Shown here: positions 5,306 to 51,498 of the stretch, piece after piece | Numbering within the stretch: the first letter of the stretch is position 1 | How the letters are laid out: each line of letters begins with the position of its first letter | DNA from: Escherichia phage Sa157lw | Reading direction: 5' to 3' (one strand) | Length of the DNA stretch: 64,000 nt | Sequence record: OK322699.1 | The notes under the pieces: model-generated | What the model saw: the letters and a program-made list of their open reading frames with translations, nothing else | Told to the model about the DNA's origin: nothing | Database searches by the model: none | Program-made: the position numbers and the translations under genes

Positions 5306-7402
5306 ATGATTTCTCAATTCAATCAGCCACACGGCTCCACTTCAATATTTGTTAACAAACAATCTATCGCTCGAAATTTCGGTGTCAAAGAAGACGAAGT
5401 CGTTTATTTCACTGCTGGTATTGATCTCAGTGGATTTAAAGTAATTTATGATGAGTCTACCCAACGGGCTTATTCTCTTCCTTCGGGTATTGTTTCAGGA
5501 ACGACTGCGATAAGTCTGAACGAACAAGCCATCCTCACTCATTCCGCTGGCTCTGTTGACCTTGGGGAATTAGCAGTAAGCCGCGAAGAATATGTGACTT
5601 TACCTGGTTCTTTTAATTTCGGCCATACCATTAATGTGAAAAATGAACTTCTTGTTCACGATGATAAAAAATATCGATGGGATGGTTCACTTCCTAAAAC
5701 TGTCGATGCTGGCTCAACACCTGAAACATCTGGTGGCGTTGGTATTGGTACATGGCTGAGTGTTGGTGACGCAGCATTTAGACAGGAAGCCAACAAAAAA
5801 TTCAAATATTCAGTAAAGTTATCTGATTATTCTACATTACAGGATGCAGCGACAGCAGCCGTAGATGGATTGCTTATTGATGTTGACTACACTTTTACTG
5901 CAGATGAGAGTGTAGATTTTAGCGGTAAAGTTTTAATCATTGAATGCAAGGGAAAATTCATTGGCGATGGTATGTTGGTTTGGAATGGTTTGGGTGCGGG
6001 TTCAGTAATTAAGAAACCGCACATGCATACTAAAACTACGCCGTATACTGTTTACCGATTCGATGCAAACGGTAATTGGGTTACAGACCCAACACAAGTT
6101 CTGGCATCTGTTCAGCAGCGTTTGGATGTTGGATATAAGCCAAATATTAACGATTTAGATATTTGGGACGACCTTCCTGATAATGTAAAAAATCAGGTTG
6201 CTGGTGCTACTTTGCGAATAATGAGCGGCGATAATATCATCGTAGAGAACCCAGAAGCTACATTTGGTGGTTATCTATTTACTTTATGTAATAGGATTCT
6301 TGTTAAGAATCCACGCAATTTTATTGCTTTGGAATCGGGCATTACATTTGAGAACCATCATACAACTGCATGGGGTACTGGCAACTGGGTTGTTGGGGGT
6401 GAGATTAAATATGGCTCTGGTTCCGCTGTACTGTTCATTCGCAATGATGGTGGTACAGACCATGATGGTGGAGTAAGGGATTTAATATCCTATCGCGTTG
6501 GAGAATCTGGTGTTAAAACCTATCAAAATGAAATAGGTGGTCGTTCAGCCAGGAACTACCGTTTAGTGTTCGACAATATAACTACAATCCAGTGTTACTA
6601 TGATGGTATTGATGTTAATGCTGACACAGGGTCGCCAACTGAACGTGTGGATGACTACTCACTCGCAGAGTATCCATGGTTCCACCTACCTACTCAACAT
6701 ATCATCCGTAATATTATTACTCGTGATTGTATGGGGATTGGTGCTTGGTGGGATGGTCAGAAAAATATTATTGATAATGTTGTTACTTATGAGGCCCATA
6801 AGGAAGGCGTCTTCGATAGGGGTACTAACAATGATATTACTAACATTACTGTAGTAGGTGCGAATAAGGATTTAACTAACCTAAATCAGATTACCTGTGA
6901 GGGAGGTAGTAGACTTCGTGGTATTAACATCCATGCATATACTACACAAGGTTACGCTATATACGCTCCGTCTTCAGAAGTAAGTAATGTTTCCTGTGCT
7001 GGTTCCGGTACTAAGAAATTACTATGTACCTATATAAGCGATATTCAGGGAGGTAATATCAATGTTCAGCATAGTGCCAACCAAATGACACTTGCAATGC
7101 AACCTGCTATGGGTGGTACTACAAACCCATCTTTGCTTATGACGGCAGATTGCCAGGTTGCTACACCAGGGGGTGAGGCAAGTATTGTCAAGCTTTCGGC
7201 AATTCAGGAGGGTGTACGTGTAGGTGAGTTTCAGCTTAACCGCTTAGGCTTTAAGCATATGAGTATACCTGCTGCCCCTTTACAATTACCAGAGAGCGCT
7301 CTGGAACATAATTCATCTATAGGATTCTTCTTCGGAAGTGACGGAGCATTGAGGTTGCTTGCTAAAAAACCAGATGGAAGTTATGTAACATACACACTTT
7401 AA
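5306..7402 (+). CDS. tailspike protein (698 aa) with N-terminal anchor domain shared with the 596-aa tailspike
   Basis: First ~140 aa align with the 10338 gene (GSTS...IARNFGVKEDEVVYFTAG...QRAYSLPS vs GSTS...IARKFGCKKSEVVYAKAG...QRAYSLPS); divergent C-terminus. Confidence 0.65.
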   Translation: MISQFNQPHGSTSIFVNKQSIARNFGVKEDEVVYFTAGIDLSGFKVIYDESTQRAYSLPSGIVSGTTAISLNEQAILTHSAGSVDLGELAVSREEYVTLPGSFNFGHTINVKNELLVHDDKKYRWDGSLPKTVDAGSTPETSGGVGIGTWLSVGDAAFRQEANKKFKYSVKLSDYSTLQDAATAAVDGLLIDVDYTFTADESVDFSGKVLIIECKGKFIGDGMLVWNGLGAGSVIKKPHMHTKTTPYTVYRFDANGNWVTDPTQVLASVQQRLDVGYKPNINDLDIWDDLPDNVKNQVAGATLRIMSGDNIIVENPEATFGGYLFTLCNRILVKNPRNFIALESGITFENHHTTAWGTGNWVVGGEIKYGSGSAVLFIRNDGGTDHDGGVRDLISYRVGESGVKTYQNEIGGRSARNYRLVFDNITTIQCYYDGIDVNADTGSPTERVDDYSLAEYPWFHLPTQHIIRNIITRDCMGIGAWWDGQKNIIDNVVTYEAHKEGVFDRGTNNDITNITVVGANKDLTNLNQITCEGGSRLRGINIHAYTTQGYAIYAPSSEVSNVSCAGSGTKKLLCTYISDIQGGNINVQHSANQMTLAMQPAMGGTTNPSLLMTADCQVATPGGEASIVKLSAIQEGVRVGEFQLNRLGFKHMSIPAAPLQLPESALEHNSSIGFFFGSDGALRLLAKKPDGSYVTYTL

Positions 7403-7417
7403 TTTATCTTGAGCAAA

Positions 7418-7445
7418 AACCCCGCTTTGGCGGGGTTCTTATTAT
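7418..7445 (+). terminator. rho-independent terminator (AACCCCGC-TTTG-GCGGGGTT plus T-rich tail)
   Basis: Perfect 8-bp GC-rich stem directly after the stop at 7402. Confidence 0.6.
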
Positions 7446-7475
7446 ACCTTTGTTCATAAATTTTATTAGTTCAGA

Positions 7476-7513
7476 CTAAATACCCCATATTGGCAAATCC
7501 TTATGGGGTATTT
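7476..7513 (+). promoter_or_regulatory. late-promoter motif CTAAATACCCC (7476-7486) within a 12-bp inverted repeat (7478-7489 / 7502-7513)
   Basis: AAATACCCCATA / TATGGGGTATTT exact reverse complements; right arm contains the SD for the ATG at 7518. Confidence 0.6.
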
Positions 7514-7517
7514 TCAA

Positions 7518-10283
7518 ATGACCAGAAATGTAGAAGAATTATTCGGCGGCGTAATCACAGCTCCCCACCAGATTCCTTTCACGTATAAATCAAATGTCGG
7601 TGGAGAAACTTTCATTTCTCTACCTTTCTATCCTGTCGCTGGTGTTGTCACAATTAACGGCGGGGTGCAAGTTCCGTTAGACAACTTCGAAATAGACGGG
7701 AATACGTTAAACCTCGGGCGCGCATTGTCTAAAGATGACGTGGTTTATTGCCTGTTCGACAAAATCCTTTCACCAGAAGATACTTCTAAAGGTATTCGAA
7801 TATACAAATTTCAAGCCGTGGGTGGAGAAACTGAATTCACGCCTGACTTTACTTCTTATGGTGTCCAGTCTCTTTATATCGGTGGTGAGTACAAAACTCC
7901 TGATATAGAATATTCATACAACAGTACGACTGGGAAAGTTTCCTTACAAACTGCGCTGACTGCAGGGGTGTGGGTTGTTGCGGAGATGTCTGTTAAACAA
8001 CCGAATATCAGTCCGGCGTTCGATCGCAGTATCCAAGAAATTGCCCGTTCGGCTAACGTAAAAGACTCTGAAGTCATTGTCAGCACTGATACCATATCTT
8101 TACTCGACGACAAGAAAGTTGTTTATGATTCAGCGGCGCAGATTATTTATGGTTTACCAACTATCCCTGATGGTTCAGTGATTTCTTCTGTTAGTAATGG
8201 GCAACTTACTTATAATCCAGGTAATGTTGTAGTGGATTTGTTGCCTTTAGAAGATTCATTTATTAATGTGATAAACACTCTGGGGCGCAATGATGGTGCC
8301 AAGTATATCGGAGAATGCCATTCTGTTGCTGATCTCAGGAATACTGAACCCACTATGGATGGACAACGCATTATTCTTAAGCAACACACTGCGGGTACTC
8401 TTCTTGGTGGAGGGGTATTCCGTGCGTTAATTGATGGTACAGGAAAGACTGATGATAACGGCACTGTGATCAAAACTGTTGGAGGCGCAGCCTGGTTACG
8501 TGTTAATGCTGATAGAGTTAACCCATTCATGTTTGGTGCTTTGGGCGGTTCTAATGATGATACTATTCCAGTACAATCTTGTGTGGACAGTGGTAAGGCC
8601 ACACAATTAACTGGTGTACATTACGTTAGCAATATCCGGTTAAAATATAATACGTCGTCTATTTATGGGTCTGGATTACATTACTCCAGGTTGCATCAGT
8701 TGCCTTCTGCTACTGGGAATTGTATTACCATAAAAGATACATGCTCCCTTATTGTATTAGACTCCTTTGGGGTATATGGCACAGGTGCACAACAAGGCAC
8801 ATCATTTACTGCGGGTACAACAGGTATCTATATAGAAACTCCTTCAGGTCTCTCAGCTGATTATCCGTTCCACACTACCGCAGACCCAAGACGCGACTTG
8901 TGTATTTCTAAGGTCCATATAGCAGGTTTTGATGAATATGGGTTAAATATTGATAGTGGTAACTTTAGTGTTACTACAGATTCTCTTTTAGTCAACCACA
9001 TCAATCAGGTGGGCGTCCGTTGTGCTACTACTGATTGGACTTGGACAAATATCCAGGTTAATACCTGCGGTAAACAATGTCTGGTTCTTGATGGTTGTGG
9101 TAATGGTCGTATTATTGGTGGTAAATTCATTTGGGCTAACTGGCAACCTTATGGTACAGTAGGACAGTTCCCAGGCATTACTATTAATAATAGCCAGAAT
9201 ATGGTTATTAATGGTATTGAGGTACAAGATTGTGGCGGGAATGGCATTGAGATTAGCGATTCATATTCAATTTCCATGAACGGATTGAACACCAATCGTA
9301 ACGGCATCAACGCTAACAACACTTTCTACAACATCGTATTTAACAAAAGTGATGCAGTTATCAACGGATTCGTAGGACTCAATTATGCCGCGAATAGTGG
9401 TTCAGGTGCTAACTCTAGTGCGGGCAATTTTCAGTTCCTGTCTAATGATTGCAGCGTCACCATTAATGGTGTGGTTGAGACTGGTTATATGGGCATTAAC
9501 TTTATTGGTGATAACAATATTATCAACCCCACAAATTCCGACCTGAGCATTAACGGATTGGTTAATTATTCCAAGACTGGTTTGCAAACCATGAACGAGA
9601 CCCCTACATTTGATGGTGTTAGCACTACACCTGTTTATGTAAGTGTCCCATCTTCTGTAGGGCAAGTAAATGGTCTGAGACTATCACAAGCCAACAAAGA
9701 TAAATTACTGTACTCAAGAACAGCAGGTCCAGAAGGTATTACCATGGCTGCTGTTGTAGTACCTACCATATCTGGAGCTGAAGTATTTAACTTCATGGCC
9801 ATTGGTTCAGGGTTTAGTGATACATCCAACAGTCTTCATCTTCAATTAGTTATAGACGCTTCCGGAAAACAAACAATTGCTTTGCTATTGGGGGGCGATG
9901 GTACAACCCAAATTTTATCTGGGGATTTACCTAACGACCTTAAACTACAAAGTGGTGTGCCATATCATATAGCTATTGGTGCTAAACCTGGATATTTCTG
10001 GTGGAGTATTCTTAATATTCAGACGGGTAAGAGAATCAGACGGTCATTCCGAGGCGCTTATTTAGCTGTACCATTTAATTCTATATTCGGATTAACTTCT
10101 TCATTAACATTCTTCTCGGATAGCAATGCTGGTGGGGATGCCTGTTCTGGTGTAGGTGCTAAAGTGTATGTTGGTATGTTCTCTTCTGAGAATGATTATG
10201 TAGCTTCACGGTACTACAACCTGATTAATCCTGTAGACCCTAATAAGTTAATTAGTTACCGTATATTGGATTCTTCTATTTAA
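7518..10283 (+). CDS. tailspike protein (921 aa from ATG 7518), gp10-like domains plus parallel beta-helix
   Basis: ORF-track start 7503 lies inside the palindrome; ATG 7518 preferred. Beta-helix repeats (VINGIEVQDCGGNGIEISDS...). Shares module with the 1057-aa tailspike. Confidence 0.7.
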   Translation: MTRNVEELFGGVITAPHQIPFTYKSNVGGETFISLPFYPVAGVVTINGGVQVPLDNFEIDGNTLNLGRALSKDDVVYCLFDKILSPEDTSKGIRIYKFQAVGGETEFTPDFTSYGVQSLYIGGEYKTPDIEYSYNSTTGKVSLQTALTAGVWVVAEMSVKQPNISPAFDRSIQEIARSANVKDSEVIVSTDTISLLDDKKVVYDSAAQIIYGLPTIPDGSVISSVSNGQLTYNPGNVVVDLLPLEDSFINVINTLGRNDGAKYIGECHSVADLRNTEPTMDGQRIILKQHTAGTLLGGGVFRALIDGTGKTDDNGTVIKTVGGAAWLRVNADRVNPFMFGALGGSNDDTIPVQSCVDSGKATQLTGVHYVSNIRLKYNTSSIYGSGLHYSRLHQLPSATGNCITIKDTCSLIVLDSFGVYGTGAQQGTSFTAGTTGIYIETPSGLSADYPFHTTADPRRDLCISKVHIAGFDEYGLNIDSGNFSVTTDSLLVNHINQVGVRCATTDWTWTNIQVNTCGKQCLVLDGCGNGRIIGGKFIWANWQPYGTVGQFPGITINNSQNMVINGIEVQDCGGNGIEISDSYSISMNGLNTNRNGINANNTFYNIVFNKSDAVINGFVGLNYAANSGSGANSSAGNFQFLSNDCSVTINGVVETGYMGINFIGDNNIINPTNSDLSINGLVNYSKTGLQTMNETPTFDGVSTTPVYVSVPSSVGQVNGLRLSQANKDKLLYSRTAGPEGITMAAVVVPTISGAEVFNFMAIGSGFSDTSNSLHLQLVIDASGKQTIALLLGGDGTTQILSGDLPNDLKLQSGVPYHIAIGAKPGYFWWSILNIQTGKRIRRSFRGAYLAVPFNSIFGLTSSLTFFSDSNAGGDACSGVGAKVYVGMFSSENDYVASRYYNLINPVDPNKLISYRILDSSI

Positions 10284-43433: not shown

Positions 43434-43465
43434 AACAGAGGCTATAATGGCCTCTGTTTTTGTAT
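43434..43465 (+). terminator. terminator hairpin (ACAGAGGC-TATAATG-GCCTCTGT plus T-run)
   Basis: Perfect 8-bp stem followed by TTTTTGTATT. Confidence 0.55.
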
Positions 43466-43480
43466 TCTAGAGAGGATACC

Positions 43481-44704
43481 ATGAAAGATAAACCGTGTGA
43501 CATTCCTTATTGCGGTGTTCGGGAAACCAAAATTAAATCTGCACACCCCACGTTAAGTCCATTCCATAAACAACTCGCATACGAATGGATGAGCGAGCGC
43601 TATAAGATCCACGTGAGAAAGGACGTCCAACGTCTTCCTGCTCCTTGGACGGATAATCCCATACTACGGCAGGTCAAGTTCTGTAACGTCCGGAGAGAGC
43701 ACGACAGGCAGTCTCTTAACCTGATCAACAATATCGTCAAGAACGATGCTCTGGGCATTGCCGACAAGATGTTCAACTGTGTTCTGTTCCGCATGTTCAA
43801 CCTCTGGGACCCGATCAAGGCTATCGGTGACGCTCGTACTATCAAAGAGTTCGCAAACATCGATCTTGATGCAACCCGCAAAAGTCTTCAGGAATTTGAG
43901 GCCAACGGTGGTAAGATCTTCACCAATGCCTTCAACACAGGCGGTCTAAAGCAGTGTCTGGCGTTCCCCGAACTCGTTGTCAACCACAAGGAGCAGCGCT
44001 TTGGTGGTATGATGGTTAAGGTACACCGTGTTGGCCAGGGTATCGTTGATGAATTGGATTACAAGGTCGCCAAGAAGCTGGTTGAAGAAAATCCTGGGGA
44101 GTACACGATCGAGGGCTGGGAGCCGTACATGCCGATGCGTGTTATCCGTTCCCTGAAGGCATTTGTCAACAAGTATCCTGATTATTTCAATGATCTTTTA
44201 CGTCTTGACTCTCCGCTGAAAGTTTACCAGCGCATGTATGACGACATTGAAGGGCTTGGGCCATTCCTGGCATATCAGATATGGGTGGACTTCACATACA
44301 TCCCTGAGTATCCATTCAGTGAGAATCACTTCACCATCGCTGGCCCAGGTTGCCGTGCGGGTATTGACCTGATGTTCCTGGATAAGGACGGTATGACTCA
44401 TGAAGAGTGCATCTTCTGGGTTCGAGATCACCAGTATCAATTGTTTGCCCAGTATGGTTATGTCCAAGAGCAGTTCTGGTCAGCCGAAGCGCCGGAAGAT
44501 CAGTGCATGAATGTCATGCAGCTGGAGAACATGTTCTGTGAATTGAGCAAGTACACCCGCTGTGTTGAGGCCATTGAGAGAGGGGAAAAGCCACGCGGCA
44601 AGGTCGGTTACGATGGAGGCGGAGAATACAAAAAGCGGTGCGATGAAGTTGTCCTCAAACGCGGTTCCGTCAATTTGTTAGATCGTTTGAAGAAACCTGA
44701 ATAA
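43481..44704 (+). CDS. hypothetical protein (407 aa), Cys-containing N-terminus
   Basis: ATG 43481 with GAGAGGA SD; KPCDIPYCGV N-terminus; no family recognised. Confidence 0.45.
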   Translation: MKDKPCDIPYCGVRETKIKSAHPTLSPFHKQLAYEWMSERYKIHVRKDVQRLPAPWTDNPILRQVKFCNVRREHDRQSLNLINNIVKNDALGIADKMFNCVLFRMFNLWDPIKAIGDARTIKEFANIDLDATRKSLQEFEANGGKIFTNAFNTGGLKQCLAFPELVVNHKEQRFGGMMVKVHRVGQGIVDELDYKVAKKLVEENPGEYTIEGWEPYMPMRVIRSLKAFVNKYPDYFNDLLRLDSPLKVYQRMYDDIEGLGPFLAYQIWVDFTYIPEYPFSENHFTIAGPGCRAGIDLMFLDKDGMTHEECIFWVRDHQYQLFAQYGYVQEQFWSAEAPEDQCMNVMQLENMFCELSKYTRCVEAIERGEKPRGKVGYDGGGEYKKRCDEVVLKRGSVNLLDRLKKPE

Positions 44705-44816: not shown

Positions 44817-46838
44817 ATGGCAGAATTCAAACCTTTCGCAACGGCTGTTAATGATAACGTGCTGGCGATGTCCGCAACTGGTCTGTTTATGACCAACGTT
44901 GATAAAGATGCTCTGTGGGATTTGTATTTGGCATCCTTCCCAGCTGGTACCAACCCGATGTACCGCGAACGCACTGAACACGACTGCACCTGCTGTAAAC
45001 AATTCATCCGTAATATCGGCGGCGTCGTGACTATCGATGCTGACCTGAACGTTATCTCGATTTGGGACAACATTGAGCTGGGTAACGAATACGACGTGGT
45101 GGCTGCGGCGCTGTCGACCTTCGTTAAACAACACGCAATCGTCGACGTGTATTTCAACGATTCTGCTAAAGTCGGCCTGTCTCATAACCACGAATCTGGT
45201 GAAGACGGCAAAATCCGCACGTATAACCATTTCCACACCGAACTGCTCGGCAGCTATGTCCTGCGTTCTGATGCTATTGCATCTAAAAAAGGTGAAATCC
45301 GACAGGCTATCGAATTATTTGAACGCGGTCTGCGTGAAATTACTCTGGAATCAGCAGAAATCGTTCTGGAATTGATTGATCAGAATTCTTTGTATCGCGG
45401 CGCTGAACATAAAGCTGCGGTGATGGGCTTCGTAGTAGCCAAGACGGCATATGAAGAAATCCCAGAATCTAACCGTTCTCTGTGGGCATGGCGCACTGGT
45501 TATCGTTCAAACAATCATGTTCCACATGGCATTCGCAACACCGTTATCGGTACTCTGTTGACTGATATCAGTGAAGGCGTGGAACTGGAAAAGGCCGTTA
45601 AGTCGTTTGAAACCAAAGTTGCCCCAGCGAACTACAAACGCCCGACGGCTCTGGTCTCCAAGTCCATGATCGAAAACGCTCAGAAAGAAGTGATTGCTCT
45701 CGGTCTGGAAGATTCGCTGGCGCGTCGTTATGCAGTTTATGACGACCTGACGATCAATAACGTTCTGTTTGCAGACCTGGCTGCTCAAAAAGCGATGGAT
45801 CCATTCGCTCAACTGGCCGCCGAAGTGAAAACGCCGACCAAGTCGCTGGATAAAGTTGAAGAGATTGGCATTGACGACTTCCTGAGCAATATCCTGCCGA
45901 AAGCGCATTCAATGGAAGTGCTGGTTGAAAACTCGCATACTGGCAACCTTATGTCTCTGGTCGCTCCGGCTATTGCAGGTGCTCCTAACCTTTTCAAATG
46001 GGGCAACGGTTTCTCATGGTCATACAACGGCGAAGTGGCCGACTCCATCAAAGAGCGTGTGAAAGCGGCTGGCGGTAAAGTCGACGGGTTCCTCCGTGTA
46101 TCCCTGGCTTGGCACAACAACGATGACCTCGATCTGCATATGTTCTTTAACAATATGGAACATGTGTACTTCCGCGATCGTCGTTCAATGACTGGTGCTC
46201 ATCTCGATATCGACATGAACGGTATGGACGGCATCGACCCGAACCGCTCTCCGGTAGAAAACATCATCTTCACTGATGAAAGAAAGCTGCGTGACGGTGA
46301 ATATCGTTTTGAGATTCACAACTACAACCAACGTGAAAAGATCGACGAAGGGTTTGAAATTGAAGTTGAATACAAAGGCGCTACGCAACGTTTTAGCCAC
46401 AATGGGTTAAAAGACCAGGGGCGCATCACTGCCGTCGTTCTGACTGTTAAAGACAAACAAGTCGTTAGCATCAAGTCTGAGCTGGCGAATGTTGATAAAT
46501 CCAAAGAAATTTGGGGCATTAAGACAGCGACCTTCCAGAAGGTACAGCTGGTCCTGAACTCACCAAACCATTGGGATGGTGAACAAACTGGCAACAAGCA
46601 CGTCTTCTTCATCTTGGAAGGTTGTGCGAATCCTGAAGGTACTCGTGGTTTCTACAATGAATATCTGAAGCCGGAACTGGATAAACATCGTAAGGTTTTT
46701 GAAATGTTGGGTAGTAAAATGAAAGTACAACCCAACGAAAACCAACTGTCTGGTTTGGGGTTCTCGACAACGCAACGCAACCATGTGTTCGTCAAAGTGT
46801 CCGGCGCGTTTAACCGTACTGTAAAAGTCATTTTCTAA
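44817..46838 (+). CDS. hypothetical protein (673 aa)
   Basis: Long ORF with AGGAAG SD; no P-loop or other motif recognised. Confidence 0.5.
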   Translation: MAEFKPFATAVNDNVLAMSATGLFMTNVDKDALWDLYLASFPAGTNPMYRERTEHDCTCCKQFIRNIGGVVTIDADLNVISIWDNIELGNEYDVVAAALSTFVKQHAIVDVYFNDSAKVGLSHNHESGEDGKIRTYNHFHTELLGSYVLRSDAIASKKGEIRQAIELFERGLREITLESAEIVLELIDQNSLYRGAEHKAAVMGFVVAKTAYEEIPESNRSLWAWRTGYRSNNHVPHGIRNTVIGTLLTDISEGVELEKAVKSFETKVAPANYKRPTALVSKSMIENAQKEVIALGLEDSLARRYAVYDDLTINNVLFADLAAQKAMDPFAQLAAEVKTPTKSLDKVEEIGIDDFLSNILPKAHSMEVLVENSHTGNLMSLVAPAIAGAPNLFKWGNGFSWSYNGEVADSIKERVKAAGGKVDGFLRVSLAWHNNDDLDLHMFFNNMEHVYFRDRRSMTGAHLDIDMNGMDGIDPNRSPVENIIFTDERKLRDGEYRFEIHNYNQREKIDEGFEIEVEYKGATQRFSHNGLKDQGRITAVVLTVKDKQVVSIKSELANVDKSKEIWGIKTATFQKVQLVLNSPNHWDGEQTGNKHVFFILEGCANPEGTRGFYNEYLKPELDKHRKVFEMLGSKMKVQPNENQLSGLGFSTTQRNHVFVKVSGAFNRTVKVIF

Positions 46839-47717: not shown

Positions 47718-47940
47718 AAAATTATCTCAGGTAATGACCGACTGCAACCGCCGGAATTATTGTGATGAAGCGTATACCAAATTGAAAACTGCTGTTGAAA
47801 CCGAGCTGGCAGGTCTTTCCGTTTTCAAAGATATTCAGACCGAAGTGCTATATCTGTCGGATGAAGATTTAAGGCGTTGCCCCCGCAAGATTTACCAATT
47901 ACTGGATCGTTTGGTGAAAGTGGGGGTGAATAATGGGTAA
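47689..47940 (+). CDS. hypothetical protein
   Basis: ORF overlapping neighbours at both ends. Confidence 0.4.
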   Translation: MSKEIQEAFEKLSQVMTDCNRRNYCDEAYTKLKTAVETELAGLSVFKDIQTEVLYLSDEDLRRCPRKIYQLLDRLVKVGVNNG

Positions 47941-48658
47941 TCGTGAAGGGATTAAACTCACACCAGAACTTCTGAAGTCACATATTGCTGAAGTGATTTA
48001 TGAAGACCGTGAAGTTGGTGGTCACCGCGTCATTACATGCCATTTCAAGATGGACAATGGGTTCGTTGTGTGGGGTAAGAATAGTTCCACATCGGTAGAC
48101 CCTGCCAACTTCGATGAAGAAATAGGCAAGCAGCTGGCCTATGAAAAGACCTTTTCTCAACTGTGGGAACTGGAAGCATATCGCGCGATGGTAGAAAAGC
48201 AGATCATCGATGTGTCTGCCGAAGATGCTAAGATCAACATTGATGAATATGTGTCAGAAAGGGAAGCGATACATGAGATGGGTGGTTCTGAATTTCTTAA
48301 GGGTAAAGGACAATCCATCGTGTTTCGTCATCCCAAAGATCCAAGTCGGGGATTTCGCGTTGAATTTGTTCGCACCGATAATGAACGTTATAACGAACGA
48401 CGCAATGGTGAGGCACGATCTTTGGTGGAAGCGTATCTTCGCTCGTTCATGACTTCTGAAGAACTAAATTCTGAACTTGTCTTGCGTTTGGCGAAAACGT
48501 GTAATGCTGCTTCAGGGGATTATCCGTGGTGTGACCTGTCAGAAGACAAACGCCAAGCAGCCTGTGATCGTGTTAAGAAATTCTTGTTAGATCCGAAAGC
48601 CCAACCTGGTGATTCCGTAGGGGCACTGTATAGAGCCATTGTGGTGTCCTACTTGTAA
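47933..48658 (+). CDS. hypothetical protein (241 aa)
   Basis: GGGGGTG SD; N-terminal domain pattern (ITCHFKMDNGFVVWGKNS...NFDEEIGKQLAYEK) recalled as similar to a small phage protein family; uncertain. Confidence 0.45.
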   Translation: MGNREGIKLTPELLKSHIAEVIYEDREVGGHRVITCHFKMDNGFVVWGKNSSTSVDPANFDEEIGKQLAYEKTFSQLWELEAYRAMVEKQIIDVSAEDAKINIDEYVSEREAIHEMGGSEFLKGKGQSIVFRHPKDPSRGFRVEFVRTDNERYNERRNGEARSLVEAYLRSFMTSEELNSELVLRLAKTCNAASGDYPWCDLSEDKRQAACDRVKKFLLDPKAQPGDSVGALYRAIVVSYL

Positions 48659-48925
48659 TTCTTCAAAAGTCTTTCAAAATCAATAACGTCCGGCAAAATG
48701 CTGGGCGTTTCAATTAATAAGCCAAGGTATAATGGCCCAACTGAAAACGCGGGGGAATTTCTTTGTCCAAGCCATTCATTCGTTCCGGAGTTGATTCTCT
48801 AGACTCCCAATTTAAGCCGAGCGAAGTTTTAATCCAACAAATTGAAACCAATCGTGAATTCATAGAACACATGTTGGCAAAGCCGGAAGGCGAAGCCGCT
48901 CAAACCACCAAAGAAGGTAATAACG

Positions 48926-51142
48926 ATGATTGAATCATTAACATTTAAAAATGCGGTAGCAACCGTCGCGCCGTCTAACCATGTAATCGTTGTGGATATC
49001 TCCGGTTCCATGTACCGTTCACTTCCTGAAGTTCGCAAGCATCTGAAGGAAAATCTCCCGTCTCTGGTTAAACCAGAAGATACCGTCAGCATTCTTTACT
49101 TTTCATCCCGTGGTGATTTCGGTACGGTATTCGCTGGCCGTCAGATCAATAGCGCGACCGATCTCAGTGAAATCAATAAACTGATTGACCGCTTCCTGCA
49201 ACCGTCCGGTTGTACGGGATTTGTAGAACCTCTGAAGTTGGCTGCTGAAACCGCGTTGAGCCTGAACAAACCTGGTTATGTCAATAACCTGGCGTTCATG
49301 ACCGACGGCTATGACAACTGCTGGCGCTCTAATGAAATTCTGGCAGCAGCTGAAGTACTGCCCAAGGCGTTCGATAATATTACATTCATCGAATATGGCT
49401 GGTATTGTAACCGCGAACTTCTGGCTCTGATGTCCGAGCGTTCTGGCGCGACTCACGTGTTTGCCGAAGGTCAGACTGAATATCAGACCGAACTGGAAAA
49501 CGTACTGAAATCATCTACGCCGAAAGTGGTTGTTGATGTTCCCCTGGTTTACACTCATGCCATCTACGTTGAAAACGGCGTGGCAACTGTGCTAGCCGTA
49601 CAACCCGATGAAGAACACCCGATTGGCCACGTCAGCATCCCTGAAAGCGTTTCTCAGCTGTGGGTTGTAAACCCTAACATGATCGACCAGCTGGATAATC
49701 TGGCAGACACCCAGGCGGCATACGTGCTGGCATTCTATGGCGTGTACACCATGGACGCCGATCTGGTCTGGGCCGCGCTGAAGAAGACGGGTGACGTCCG
49801 CTTCATCAAACAATACAGCAACTGTTTCACCAAGCAGGACTATTCCAACATCAAAGTCGATCTGACCCAGGCTATCGTGGATGAAACTCTACGCGGCGTA
49901 GATGGCATCGATTACAATATGGTTCCAGCTGAAGATGCAACGACCATTGTTGATGTCTTGACCTACCTGGCCGAAGCCGATGTCTCTGTTGTCACTAAGC
50001 ATCCATTGTTCTCTTACAACAGCATCGGTCGCGGCACTGTGCAGAAAGTTGATGACACTGAAGACAAGCTGGCTGAACAAATCGCCGAAGCCAAAACCAA
50101 AGCAGAGCGTAAAGCGCTGGCTCTCAAACTGGCTGAGCACGAAGATTGGACACCGGAATTTACTCCGGTTGATGACAAAGGGATTGTCCCAATTAGCAAT
50201 CTGGTCTACAATTCAGAGCGCCCTAACATCAGCATTCAGACCGTTCAGCATGGGACGGTTGTTGTGCCGGAGTTCGTACAGAAGAAATATGAACTCCCTG
50301 AAGAACTGGGAACCTGGCGTTATCGTAATTACACCATCGTCAAAGATGGAATCATCAACCTGAAGACGATGCCGATTACTGCCGAATCTCCGATTGTCCG
50401 AGCTAAGGTTGTCCAAGATTTGATCGCCATGGGCGTTAATGTATTTGGTGGACCGGAAATCTTCATCGTTAATTTAGAAAGCGTTCCGATGGTCAACCGC
50501 GCCATGACCAAGAACATCAGTGCTGCCGAATTCTTCGCTGACAACGTTCGTCGCGAAGCGCTGAAGGCAAAACAGAAAGTTCTGAAATTCTATCGTGATG
50601 AACTGGTTGGCAAAGGCAATGCAACTGGTCTGGCTTCTAAATATGGTAAAGAAGCCGCCGATTTCTTGTCGGCAAATGGCATTCGCGACTACGGGTTCTC
50701 GCCGAAAACTACTTCTGTGGAATCAACCGATGTCTACATGAGCCGTGAGCTGAATGTGAAAATCAAAGGTGCTTCGTCGCTGCCGAGCATTGCGTCAGTT
50801 ATCAAAAAGCAAGCAGATGGTAAAAAACTGAATGTCGCTGATCAGTTGATTGCCAATGCTTTGGCCGAATACGACGCTTTTGTTAAATCGCCAATGATCA
50901 CCAGCGTACCTGAAGAGACTCAGAAAAAGCTGATTGAAAGCTGGATCGGAGACGCAGCAAAAGCGGCCATTAACGAAGTCCGCGCCCTGAACAAAACTCT
51001 GTCTAAAGTAGTTTACGGCATCGTCGCTGGTCATGGTTGGTTCACTGATTTGGATCTGGAAGAGTCTACGATGGATGTAGAAGTTGATGGGGTGAAATAC
51101 ACCGTCACTGCCGAACTGGCCGAAAAAGAAATCAAAATCTAA
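48926..51142 (+). CDS. von Willebrand factor A (VWA) domain protein (738 aa)
   Basis: N-terminal VVVDISGSM (MIDAS DxSxS) followed by VWA-like topology; long C-terminal region of unknown function. Confidence 0.6.
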   Translation: MIESLTFKNAVATVAPSNHVIVVDISGSMYRSLPEVRKHLKENLPSLVKPEDTVSILYFSSRGDFGTVFAGRQINSATDLSEINKLIDRFLQPSGCTGFVEPLKLAAETALSLNKPGYVNNLAFMTDGYDNCWRSNEILAAAEVLPKAFDNITFIEYGWYCNRELLALMSERSGATHVFAEGQTEYQTELENVLKSSTPKVVVDVPLVYTHAIYVENGVATVLAVQPDEEHPIGHVSIPESVSQLWVVNPNMIDQLDNLADTQAAYVLAFYGVYTMDADLVWAALKKTGDVRFIKQYSNCFTKQDYSNIKVDLTQAIVDETLRGVDGIDYNMVPAEDATTIVDVLTYLAEADVSVVTKHPLFSYNSIGRGTVQKVDDTEDKLAEQIAEAKTKAERKALALKLAEHEDWTPEFTPVDDKGIVPISNLVYNSERPNISIQTVQHGTVVVPEFVQKKYELPEELGTWRYRNYTIVKDGIINLKTMPITAESPIVRAKVVQDLIAMGVNVFGGPEIFIVNLESVPMVNRAMTKNISAAEFFADNVRREALKAKQKVLKFYRDELVGKGNATGLASKYGKEAADFLSANGIRDYGFSPKTTSVESTDVYMSRELNVKIKGASSLPSIASVIKKQADGKKLNVADQLIANALAEYDAFVKSPMITSVPEETQKKLIESWIGDAAKAAINEVRALNKTLSKVVYGIVAGHGWFTDLDLEESTMDVEVDGVKYTVTAELAEKEIKI

Positions 51143-51150
51143 ATCTAATT

Positions 51151-51175
51151 GGCGGGGAAACCCGCCTTTACTTTC
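51151..51175 (+). terminator. terminator hairpin (GGCGGG-GAAA-CCCGCC plus T-rich tail)
   Basis: Perfect stem with GAAA tetraloop after VWA gene stop. Confidence 0.5.
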
Positions 51176-51186
51176 AGGAAATGAAT

Positions 51187-51498
51187 ATGAGCAACAAACC
51201 GACTTATGTTGATGTCATGCGCGATTTGGCCCAATACGCATGTGACAACCTGAACATGGAAACTTGGCGCGACGGCGATCATAAAGAAAAGTTCGATAAT
51301 ATCGACGACAACATCGATGCGTTGGCTCCTCTTCGGGCCAAGAGCGATCTCGGCGGTGATGATCTTGACATGATTGAACTCATCATGGAAGTTGAAGAAC
51401 AATATGATGTTGAAATCAGTGATGACTGGGTAGGCAAACATGGTGATGATCCCACGCTCGGCGAATTAGCTGAATTGGTAGTTGCCCTCAGCAAGTAA
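51187..51498 (+). CDS. acyl carrier protein-like protein with Ser-to-Asp at the phosphopantetheine site
   Basis: DLGGDDLDMIELIMEVEEQYDVEI aligns with E. coli ACP [24 protein letters not shown]; the conserved Ser is Asp (codon 51361-51363). Confidence 0.6.
   Translation: MSNKPTYVDVMRDLAQYACDNLNMETWRDGDHKEKFDNIDDNIDALAPLRAKSDLGGDDLDMIELIMEVEEQYDVEISDDWVGKHGDDPTLGELAELVVALSK

Follow-up and report, generated by a model that had tools for sequence, protein, structure and literature searches.

Organization of the locus

The locus described here lies in a 64,000-nt stretch of DNA from Escherichia phage Sa157lw (record OK322699.1; the whole stretch is referred to below as the window). A gene for a 738-amino acid (aa) protein with an N-terminal VWA domain is preceded there by a small open reading frame (ORF) of 56 codons and followed by a gene for a protein resembling acyl carrier proteins (ACP). 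The protein-coding features are as follows:

48763-48933, + strand: small ORF, 56 aa, TTG start, acidic product (isoelectric point, pI, 4.6); called as an ORF and by its match to phrog_8656
48926-49510, + strand: VWA domain, aa 1-195, with the full metal ion-dependent adhesion site (MIDAS) D24-x-S26-x-S28, T97, D127; Pfam and alignment
49511-50137, + strand: beta-sandwich packed on the VWA domain (aa ~196-250), then a helical region/linker (aa ~251-404)
50138-51142, + strand: family-specific C-terminal module, aa 405-738
51181-51498, + strand: ACP-like protein, 105 aa, pI 4.05; Pfam PP-binding, E = 4.7e-7

Over 2.7 kb the sequence shows 100% identity with the Salmonella phages GEC_vB_GOT, GEC_vB_N6 and SeF3a, and 99.2% with the type phage Vi01; the phage can hence be assigned by sequence to the genus Kuttervirus (Vi01-like Ackermannviridae). 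The gene order small ORF, VWA gene, ACP-like gene is unchanged in all eight Ackermannviridae regions examined. The products of the three genes share 43%, 95.8% and 63% amino acid sequence identity, respectively, with those of phage Det7, while the DNA of the VWA gene is 86.5% identical. Protein identity of 95.8% at a nucleotide identity of 86.5% shows, as judged from this pair, strong purifying selection on the VWA protein, and the three values taken together indicate a strongly constrained gene lying between mosaic, fast-diverging accessories on both sides. Sharp mosaicism is visible across positions 48763-51498, with megablast matches to Det7-type phages starting at ~48901, the junction of the small ORF and the VWA gene.

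The VWA protein

The ORF at 48926-51142 (+) encodes 738 aa, which a first-pass annotation, made by a model from the letters alone, had described as a VWA protein with a MIDAS-type motif. A profile search, residue conservation and fold comparison all uphold this description. The Pfam VWA profile (PF00092) matches aa 20-183 above its curated threshold (E = 8e-7, 29.9 bits versus a cut-off of 23.8 bits), and the five MIDAS residues D24, S26, S28, T97 and D127 are invariant in 59 of 59 homologues sharing 34-88% identity with the window protein. The AlphaFold2 model built on this 59-sequence alignment (predicted local distance difference test, pLDDT, 88; predicted template modelling score, pTM, 0.71) displays the Rossmann-like alpha/beta fold of VWA domains. 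The motif had been quoted as VVVDISGSM; its type was recognised correctly, but one letter is off, the protein reading ...HVIVVDISGSMY..., in which D24, S26 and S28 make up the DxSxS signature. The MIDAS is complete, and the VWA domain is predicted to be competent for forming the metal site.

The VWA domain and the beta-sandwich behind it resemble 4fx5, ITIH1, ArnB and Sec24 over 266-298 aligned residues, which places the N-terminal ~280 residues of the protein in the group characterized by a VWA trunk plus beta-sandwich. The remaining ~500 aa had been left unassigned by the first-pass annotation; this still applies to aa 405-738, but not to about 85 aa after the VWA domain, which form the beta-sandwich. 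Structure prediction, which had been proposed as a check of the C-terminal region, yields a compact, confident and autonomous fold for the 334-residue module, made up of a beta-rich subdomain, a long hairpin of antiparallel helices and, at the terminus, beta-hairpins. No solved structural relative of aa 405-738 was found, and a sequence profile run against the PDB matched the VWA part only. The most conserved motifs of the module are NSERPNIS, RNYTIVKDGIINLK, NGIRDYGFSP and NVKIKGASSLPS. Apart from VWA, no domain was detected by Pfam over the 59 members or by NCBIfam, and the PHROG search returned solely the protein's own family, phrog_2426, which matches across residues 1-738 (E = 0). PADLOC, which covers defence and anti-defence families, gave no match at all, and membership in a known family of either kind was rejected on that ground.

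A word-index search retrieved 240 homologues, the best 120 of which, with identities down to 34%, are full length almost without exception. The family is present in 502 phage records (tblastn), extending from Ackermannviridae to Straboviridae (Lw1, PMBT1 and GAP161, ~48% identity), PBS1/AR9 (25%) and Rhizobium phages (23%). The C-terminal module occurs in 997 proteins at E<=1e-3 (phmmer against 1.84 billion representatives; ~1000 clusters at 50% identity). Among the best 150 of these 997 nearly all are 680-815 aa long with the module in C-terminal position, and shorter ones look like fragments; since nearly all of them share one layout, the use of the module in other architectures was rejected. 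An N-terminal VWA match was obtained for nine of the ten distant members tested, and the combination of an N-terminal VWA domain with the C-terminal module is, as far as these sequences tell, fixed in the family. The window protein is thus an ordinary, full-length member of phrog_2426, elsewhere named "VWFA domain-containing protein", other members being Vi01_123c, LIMEstone1 ORF108, Lw1 gp114 and AR9 g068, with Takahashivirus also within the range. It is also on the published list of proteins conserved across the Vi01-like subclusters (PMC10892097).

Relationship to known VWA systems

Many prokaryotic VWA proteins are paired with MoxR ATPases, and the MoxR-VWA proteins have been proposed to play a chaperone or assembly role, viral examples being implicated in virion assembly (PMC7824862). 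The first-pass annotation had remarked that an ATPase or chelatase-like partner seems to be absent here, and the annotation of related genomes agrees. No ATPase of the MoxR, BchI or ChlI type is annotated in the 150 kb covered of the SeF3a genome (157 kb in all) or beside the homologues in seven diverse phages or contigs, the search comprising annotation and precomputed Pfam hits and not a dedicated hidden Markov model scan of every ORF. On this basis a magnesium chelatase or MoxR partner was rejected. Nor is any gene conserved across the seven neighbourhoods, which represent diverse phage families.

The SeF3a counterpart of the VWA gene (SeF3a_044, 7291-9543), whose annotated start lies 36 nt upstream of the position equivalent to 48926, is named "magnesium chelatase". 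In other records the homologues go under "minor tail protein" or "tail protein", names for which no evidence is visible. Because no chelatase-type ATPase is annotated, the "magnesium chelatase" label is best explained as an over-annotation, carried over from BchD through its VWA domain. The same label, together with the frequent pairing of prokaryotic VWA proteins with MoxR, could be taken to mean that the protein is a VWA cofactor of a MoxR- or chelatase-type AAA+ machine and uses a host ATPase such as RavA; we regard this as very improbable. The VWA fold with its MIDAS is indeed shared with the MoxR-linked cofactors (BchD/ChlD, NorD, CbbO, ViaA and the pairs of jumbo phages and of Acidianus two-tailed virus), but those systems differ both in domain order and in having an adjacent AAA+ gene. 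BchD/ChlD consist of an N-terminal AAA-like domain, an acidic/proline linker and a C-terminal VWA domain, whereas the window protein begins with VWA and lacks both a BchD-like AAA region and the acidic linker, no AAA domain being detected by Pfam, NCBIfam or the fold model. Furthermore, BchD and NorD score no higher as matches to it than any other VWA domain, AR9 possesses a separate MoxR-vWA pair (g028/g029) besides its homologue g068, and the hosts of the family are as far apart as Bacillus and Rhizobium.

The closest architectural likeness is to ArnB of Sulfolobus, the Sec23-Sec24 trunk, ITIH and 4fx5, in all of which a beta-sandwich follows straight after the VWA domain, with a sequence identity to the window protein of only 12-15%. 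The zinc-finger and gelsolin domains of Sec23/24 and the VIT domain of ITIH were not seen by Pfam in the 59 members, no FHA protein that would correspond to the FHA/zinc-ribbon partner ArnA is annotated near the VWA gene, and nothing in this group corresponds to the 334-aa C-terminal module. Ku70/Ku80 and INTS13/INTS14 show a superficially similar succession of VWA, beta-rich and helical parts. The beta-barrel ring with bridge and pillars that follows VWA in Ku, and its basic DNA channel, are however missing from the window protein; with a pI of 5.0 it is acidic, and it lacks any strongly basic domain, making DNA binding unlikely. A Ku- or INTS-like DNA-end binder was rejected, given the acidic character of the protein and the lack of structural support.

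The small ORF and its origin

The first-pass annotation had noticed a 56-aa ORF at 48763-48933 that begins with TTG after GGGGGA, ends 8 nt inside the VWA gene and is absent from the ORF track supplied with the sequence. All of these particulars hold: GGGGGA occupies 48751-48756, and the overlap, with ...AAC GAT GAT TGA running over ATG ATT GA, can be read directly. The absence from the track is most likely due to a length cut-off. The ORF is nevertheless not a new gene, as it has a PHROG family of its own (phrog_8656, E = 5.4e-40, residues 1-56 of 56 aligned) and many GenBank annotations, including those of SeF3a, Det7, Maynard, Menlow, UTK0005, MK-13, fGh-Ecl02, KE31, SE14 and FrontPhageNews. 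The reference annotation of Vi01 omits it, though its sequence there is intact.

Conservation in related genomes had been named as a check of the small ORF. It was found by tblastn in 208 phage records, from phages of Salmonella, Escherichia, Dickeya, Shigella, Klebsiella and Enterobacter, and every record whose taxonomy was read belongs to Ackermannviridae. Twelve relatives show the same 8-nt overlap (...AAY GAT GAT TGA), an arrangement expected for translational coupling; they represent four genera, namely Kuttervirus, Taipeivirus, Limestonevirus and Agtrevirus, plus an unclassified coliphage.

The region in front of the small ORF has a history of its own. Alignment of the window with UTK0005, FrontPhageNews and SE14 indicates that a 119-aa gene (phrog_4254), which in UTK0005, MK-13 and fGh-Ecl02 sits directly before the small ORF, was lost from the window, Vi01 and FrontPhageNews by a deletion of ~359 bp. 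The indel maps to 48757-48765, and ECML-4, STML-13-1 and others carry a DNA insert of equal size. In the relatives GGGGGA serves the 119-aa gene, in the window lineage the small ORF; the unusual TTG start is explained by the deletion junction, which gave rise to this start codon and placed the GGGGGA of phrog_4254 before the small ORF. A strong Shine-Dalgarno sequence is still present for the small ORF after the loss of the 119-aa gene. In LIMEstone1 the two genes are fused in frame into ORF109 (180 aa).

An overlap of this kind might also mean that the small ORF is a mere leader, delivering ribosomes to the VWA start and yielding no functional protein. Its last residues, N-D-D, are dictated by the VWA start region and are uninformative alone, the small protein diverges much faster than the VWA protein (43% versus 95.8% identity between the window and Det7), and the homologues outside Ackermannviridae lack it. 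We nonetheless consider a leader without a functional product improbable. The ratio of nonsynonymous to synonymous substitution rates (dN/dS, Nei-Gojobori) is below 1 in every informative pair, ranging from 0.06 to 0.86, with 0.06 for the best-resolved pairs (dN 0.054 and dS 0.876 for the window versus SE14). A helical core, P-x-x-V/T-L-x-x-Q/E-x-E-x-x-R/K-x-F-x-x-x-M-L, located away from the overlap with the VWA gene, is kept at 25-45% identity, the length is held at 47-71 aa across four genera, and the in-frame fusion in LIMEstone1 likewise speaks for a translated product. Because dN/dS is below 1 in all informative pairs, the small ORF is taken to be a genuine gene under purifying selection as a protein. 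The genes upstream of VWA in Lw1 and two metagenomic phages proved unrelated to it (hhalign probabilities < 1%), and a partnership beyond Ackermannviridae was rejected accordingly. From this distribution we infer that the small protein is an Ackermannviridae-specific accessory and no obligate partner of the VWA protein.

Regulatory signals

The following candidate signals were located around the two overlapping genes:

48685-48709, + strand: hairpin followed by a U-rich stretch, after the N4-gp49-like gene; candidate terminator
48728-48733, + strand: TATAAT hexamer, candidate -10 element for the small-ORF/VWA unit; read from the sequence
48751-48756, + strand: Shine-Dalgarno sequence GGGGGA of the small ORF, 6 nt before TTG
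48914-48917, + strand: AAGG, Shine-Dalgarno-like element of the VWA gene within the 3' end of the small ORF; read from the sequence
51151-51166, + strand: hairpin GGCGGG-GAAA-CCCGCC followed by TTTACTTTC, resembling an intrinsic terminator; terminator scan

The upstream hairpin has an 11-bp stem and a folding energy of -15.9 kcal/mol (z -5.2, with none of 200 shuffled sequences folding as well), and was not called by the consensus terminator scan. In the Maynard record a terminator is annotated behind that phage's own upstream gene. As a candidate terminator, the hairpin at 48685-48709 would shield the small-ORF/VWA unit from upstream transcription. The GC-rich downstream hairpin lies 9 nt past the VWA stop codon (-13.8 kcal/mol, z -3.9), and terminators are annotated at the equivalent place in Maynard and Menlow. 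That the locus forms a compact unit between two hairpins is well supported.

The TATAAT hexamer is kept in UTK0005 and FrontPhageNews. It has no good -35 element, the promoter scan made no call at 48728-48733, and its role as a -10 element is putative. A ribosome binding site is annotated in Maynard and Menlow at the position equivalent to AAGG. The 64-kb window contains a single T4-type late promoter (TATAAATA), which does not lie near the locus and is uninformative.

The ACP-like protein and neighbouring genes

The first-pass annotation had also pointed out that the VWA gene sits next to an ACP-like gene. This adjacency is constant in the eight Ackermannviridae regions, but the link is specific to that family: the VWA homologues of Straboviridae, PBS1/AR9 and Rhizobium phages come with neither the small ORF nor the ACP-like gene. 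Moreover, the term ACP applies with a reservation. The helical PP-binding fold signature is present (Pfam), but the serine to which phosphopantetheine is attached is replaced by Asp or Glu (DLGGD[D/E]LD, compared with DLGADSLD in E. coli AcpP). The replacement is found in nine of nine Ackermannviridae sequences, from Kuttervirus, Taipeivirus, Limestonevirus and a Yersinia phage. The genome has no annotated phosphopantetheinyl transferase, and the protein, which is very acidic, may, judging by its sequence, be an apo-ACP mimic instead of a carrier. The gene occurs in 270 phage records, all with Ackermannviridae-type hosts bar one weak partial exception.

The genes upstream of the locus include those for a clamp loader, regA, MazG and a protein with an HMUDK helical domain, and the downstream ones encode a spanin and a helicase. 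The immediate upstream neighbour (47933-48658, +) codes for 241 aa, the first 85 of which match the N4 gp49/Sf6 gp66 family (PF13876). In KE31, LIMEstone1, MK-13, Menlow and LHE287 a nicotinamide phosphoribosyltransferase gene is found upstream of the small ORF instead, the swap being a further sign of variability to the left of the VWA gene. Farther upstream, positions 43460-44704 (+) encode a 414-aa protein (Vi01_130c) with a match to the helical domain found in 5-hmdU DNA kinases (PF18723, E = 4e-83). It is neither of the two ViI kinases (gp67, gp243) of the thymidine-hypermodification papers and, as no obvious P-loop is visible by eye, may be a kinase-less paralogue. The 673-aa protein encoded at 44817-46838 (+) belongs to phrog_1735 and has no match in Pfam, NCBIfam or PADLOC; in the Vi01 record it is broken up into two coding sequences (Vi01_129c and Vi01_128c), suggestive of a frameshift or a sequencing error in that record.

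Expression, virion association and proposed role

No functional study of the VWA family was found in the literature searched, and the thymidine-hypermodification papers do not include the gene. Indirect evidence comes from proteomic and transcriptomic surveys of several phages that cover family members. In purified virions of LIMEstone1 the orthologue ORF108 was detected with 6 peptides (11.4% coverage); its authors counted it as structural and regarded rIIB, ligase, PhoH and gp44 (<5% coverage) as passengers (PMC3296691). In CsCl-purified virions of the Kuttervirus Sajous1, the VWA protein gp185 gave 1 spectrum and the ACP-like gp186 likewise 1, compared with 6-924 for most structural proteins (PMC10892097). 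The transcript of AR9 g068 rises from 0.96 to 105.6 and 431.5 fragments per kilobase per million mapped reads (FPKM) at 5, 20 and 40 min, a late-type profile like that of the portal and other late genes, and the protein bears no virion label (PMC5312081, Table S4). BpSp gp143 is absent from the 23 structural proteins of that phage. The virion mass spectrometry of LIMEstone1 and Sajous1 and the late transcription in AR9 weakly favour a stand-alone, MIDAS-dependent late adaptor, possibly in morphogenesis.

The reading we prefer, tentatively, is that of a stand-alone MIDAS adaptor or chaperone with a second surface in its C-terminal part, active from the middle to the late phase, plausibly around morphogenesis, and leaving some copies in particles. 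The MIDAS metal ion would bind a partner protein by capturing one of its acidic side chains, and the C-terminal module would offer a second, family-specific surface for interaction or oligomerisation. The protein would thus serve as a divalent-cation-dependent adaptor or chaperone that works without an AAA+ ATPase partner, with the small protein as its accessory in Ackermannviridae. On the sparse expression and proteomic data it would act in the middle to late phase, probably in or near virion morphogenesis, and a few copies may stay in, or co-purify with, the particles.

Several observations weigh against such an adaptor. The AR9 homologue shares no more than 25% identity, and its timing may therefore not carry over. 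In several families the gene lies amid genes of replication and nucleotide metabolism, its neighbours being the clamp loader and regA here, DNA ligase in Thanatos-1 and ribonucleotide reductase in a marine contig, and in Lw1 it is part of a small-gene block with nrdC.11 and a DNA methyltransferase; such placement suggests an early or middle intracellular role. Detection in virions is inconsistent (6 peptides in LIMEstone1 versus 1 spectrum in Sajous1, with BpSp gp143 missing), and the Vi01 record carries no particle-associated flag for the protein. Finally, the polar residues R432, N434, D474, K551, D602, Y604 and S617, invariant in the C-terminal part of the 59-sequence alignment, could equally mark an unrecognised catalytic site.

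The LIMEstone1 data could also be taken at face value, the protein then being a genuine component of the virion present at low copy number, either a tail or baseplate adhesin or an internal, ejected protein, whose VWA domain binds a target in the host envelope or cytoplasm. Its 6 peptides are close to the 7 of baseplate gp6 and exceed those of the four passengers (1 peptide each in the entries consulted, all below 5% coverage) (PMC3296691), and the GenBank note on the protein reads "confirmed structural protein". The late-type expression of the AR9 homologue (PMC5312081) and the presence of the pilus-tip adhesins PitA, SpaC and RrgA among the structural neighbours of the VWA domain would fit as well. 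Still, we find a virion role rather unlikely in view of the single spectrum from Sajous1, the lack of a virion label on AR9 g068, the absence of gp143 from the structural proteome of BpSp and the position of the VWA gene outside the structural modules.

The gene placement invites a different interpretation, in which the protein is an early or middle intracellular factor of host takeover or counter-defence, its MIDAS sequestering a host protein with the small protein and the serine-less ACP mimic acting alongside. Consistent with this are the early/middle-type gene blocks next to replication genes in several phage families, the TATAAT element upstream, the divergence of the flanking alleles (43% and 63%, against 96% for VWA), which fits accessories in an arms race, and the mosaic region in which the 119-aa gene is present or absent. 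This, too, appears doubtful: the VWA protein is strongly conserved in all Vi01-like subclusters, unlike typical anti-defence genes, PADLOC found no matches, and the AR9 homologue is hardly expressed at 5 min.

The preferred adaptor reading can be extended further than we would consider probable. The protein would then be the founding member of a class of AAA+-independent MIDAS adaptors with a new C-terminal fold, a quasi-core component of the T4-superfamily myoviruses (Ackermannviridae, several Straboviridae genera, PBS1/AR9 and Rhizobium phages), which in Ackermannviridae would form a three-part module controlling late infection or particle maturation. In such a module the 56-aa protein and the serine-less, acidic ACP mimic would be regulators or MIDAS ligands, and the Asp/Glu in place of the phosphopantetheine serine might dock on the MIDAS metal.

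Significance

Public databases already contained the sequences along with the VWA label and the small ORF, and the first-pass finding is correct but largely ordinary. What is added here is a domain map, a C-terminal module (aa 405-738) with no solved relative which is nevertheless fixed in ~1000 clusters, the absence of an annotated ATPase partner, evolutionary evidence that the small ORF encodes a protein, and the deletion history behind its TTG start. The immediate gain is modest, since public records already label the locus as a VWA-domain protein and a hypothetical small protein; it consists of a cleaner domain map, the removal of the misleading "magnesium chelatase" label and evidence that a small gene missing from the Vi01 annotation is real.

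If the adaptor model is true, a widespread and conserved phage protein would be using a metal-ion adhesion site in the eukaryotic style and doing so without the ATPase that usually accompanies it, the MIDAS domain being joined to a domain that lacks structural precedent. Among the 502 phages of the family are candidates for therapy directed at Salmonella, Klebsiella, E. coli O157 and Dickeya, and the identity of the ligand would clear one of the larger blocks of conserved "dark matter" in the Vi01-like phages.

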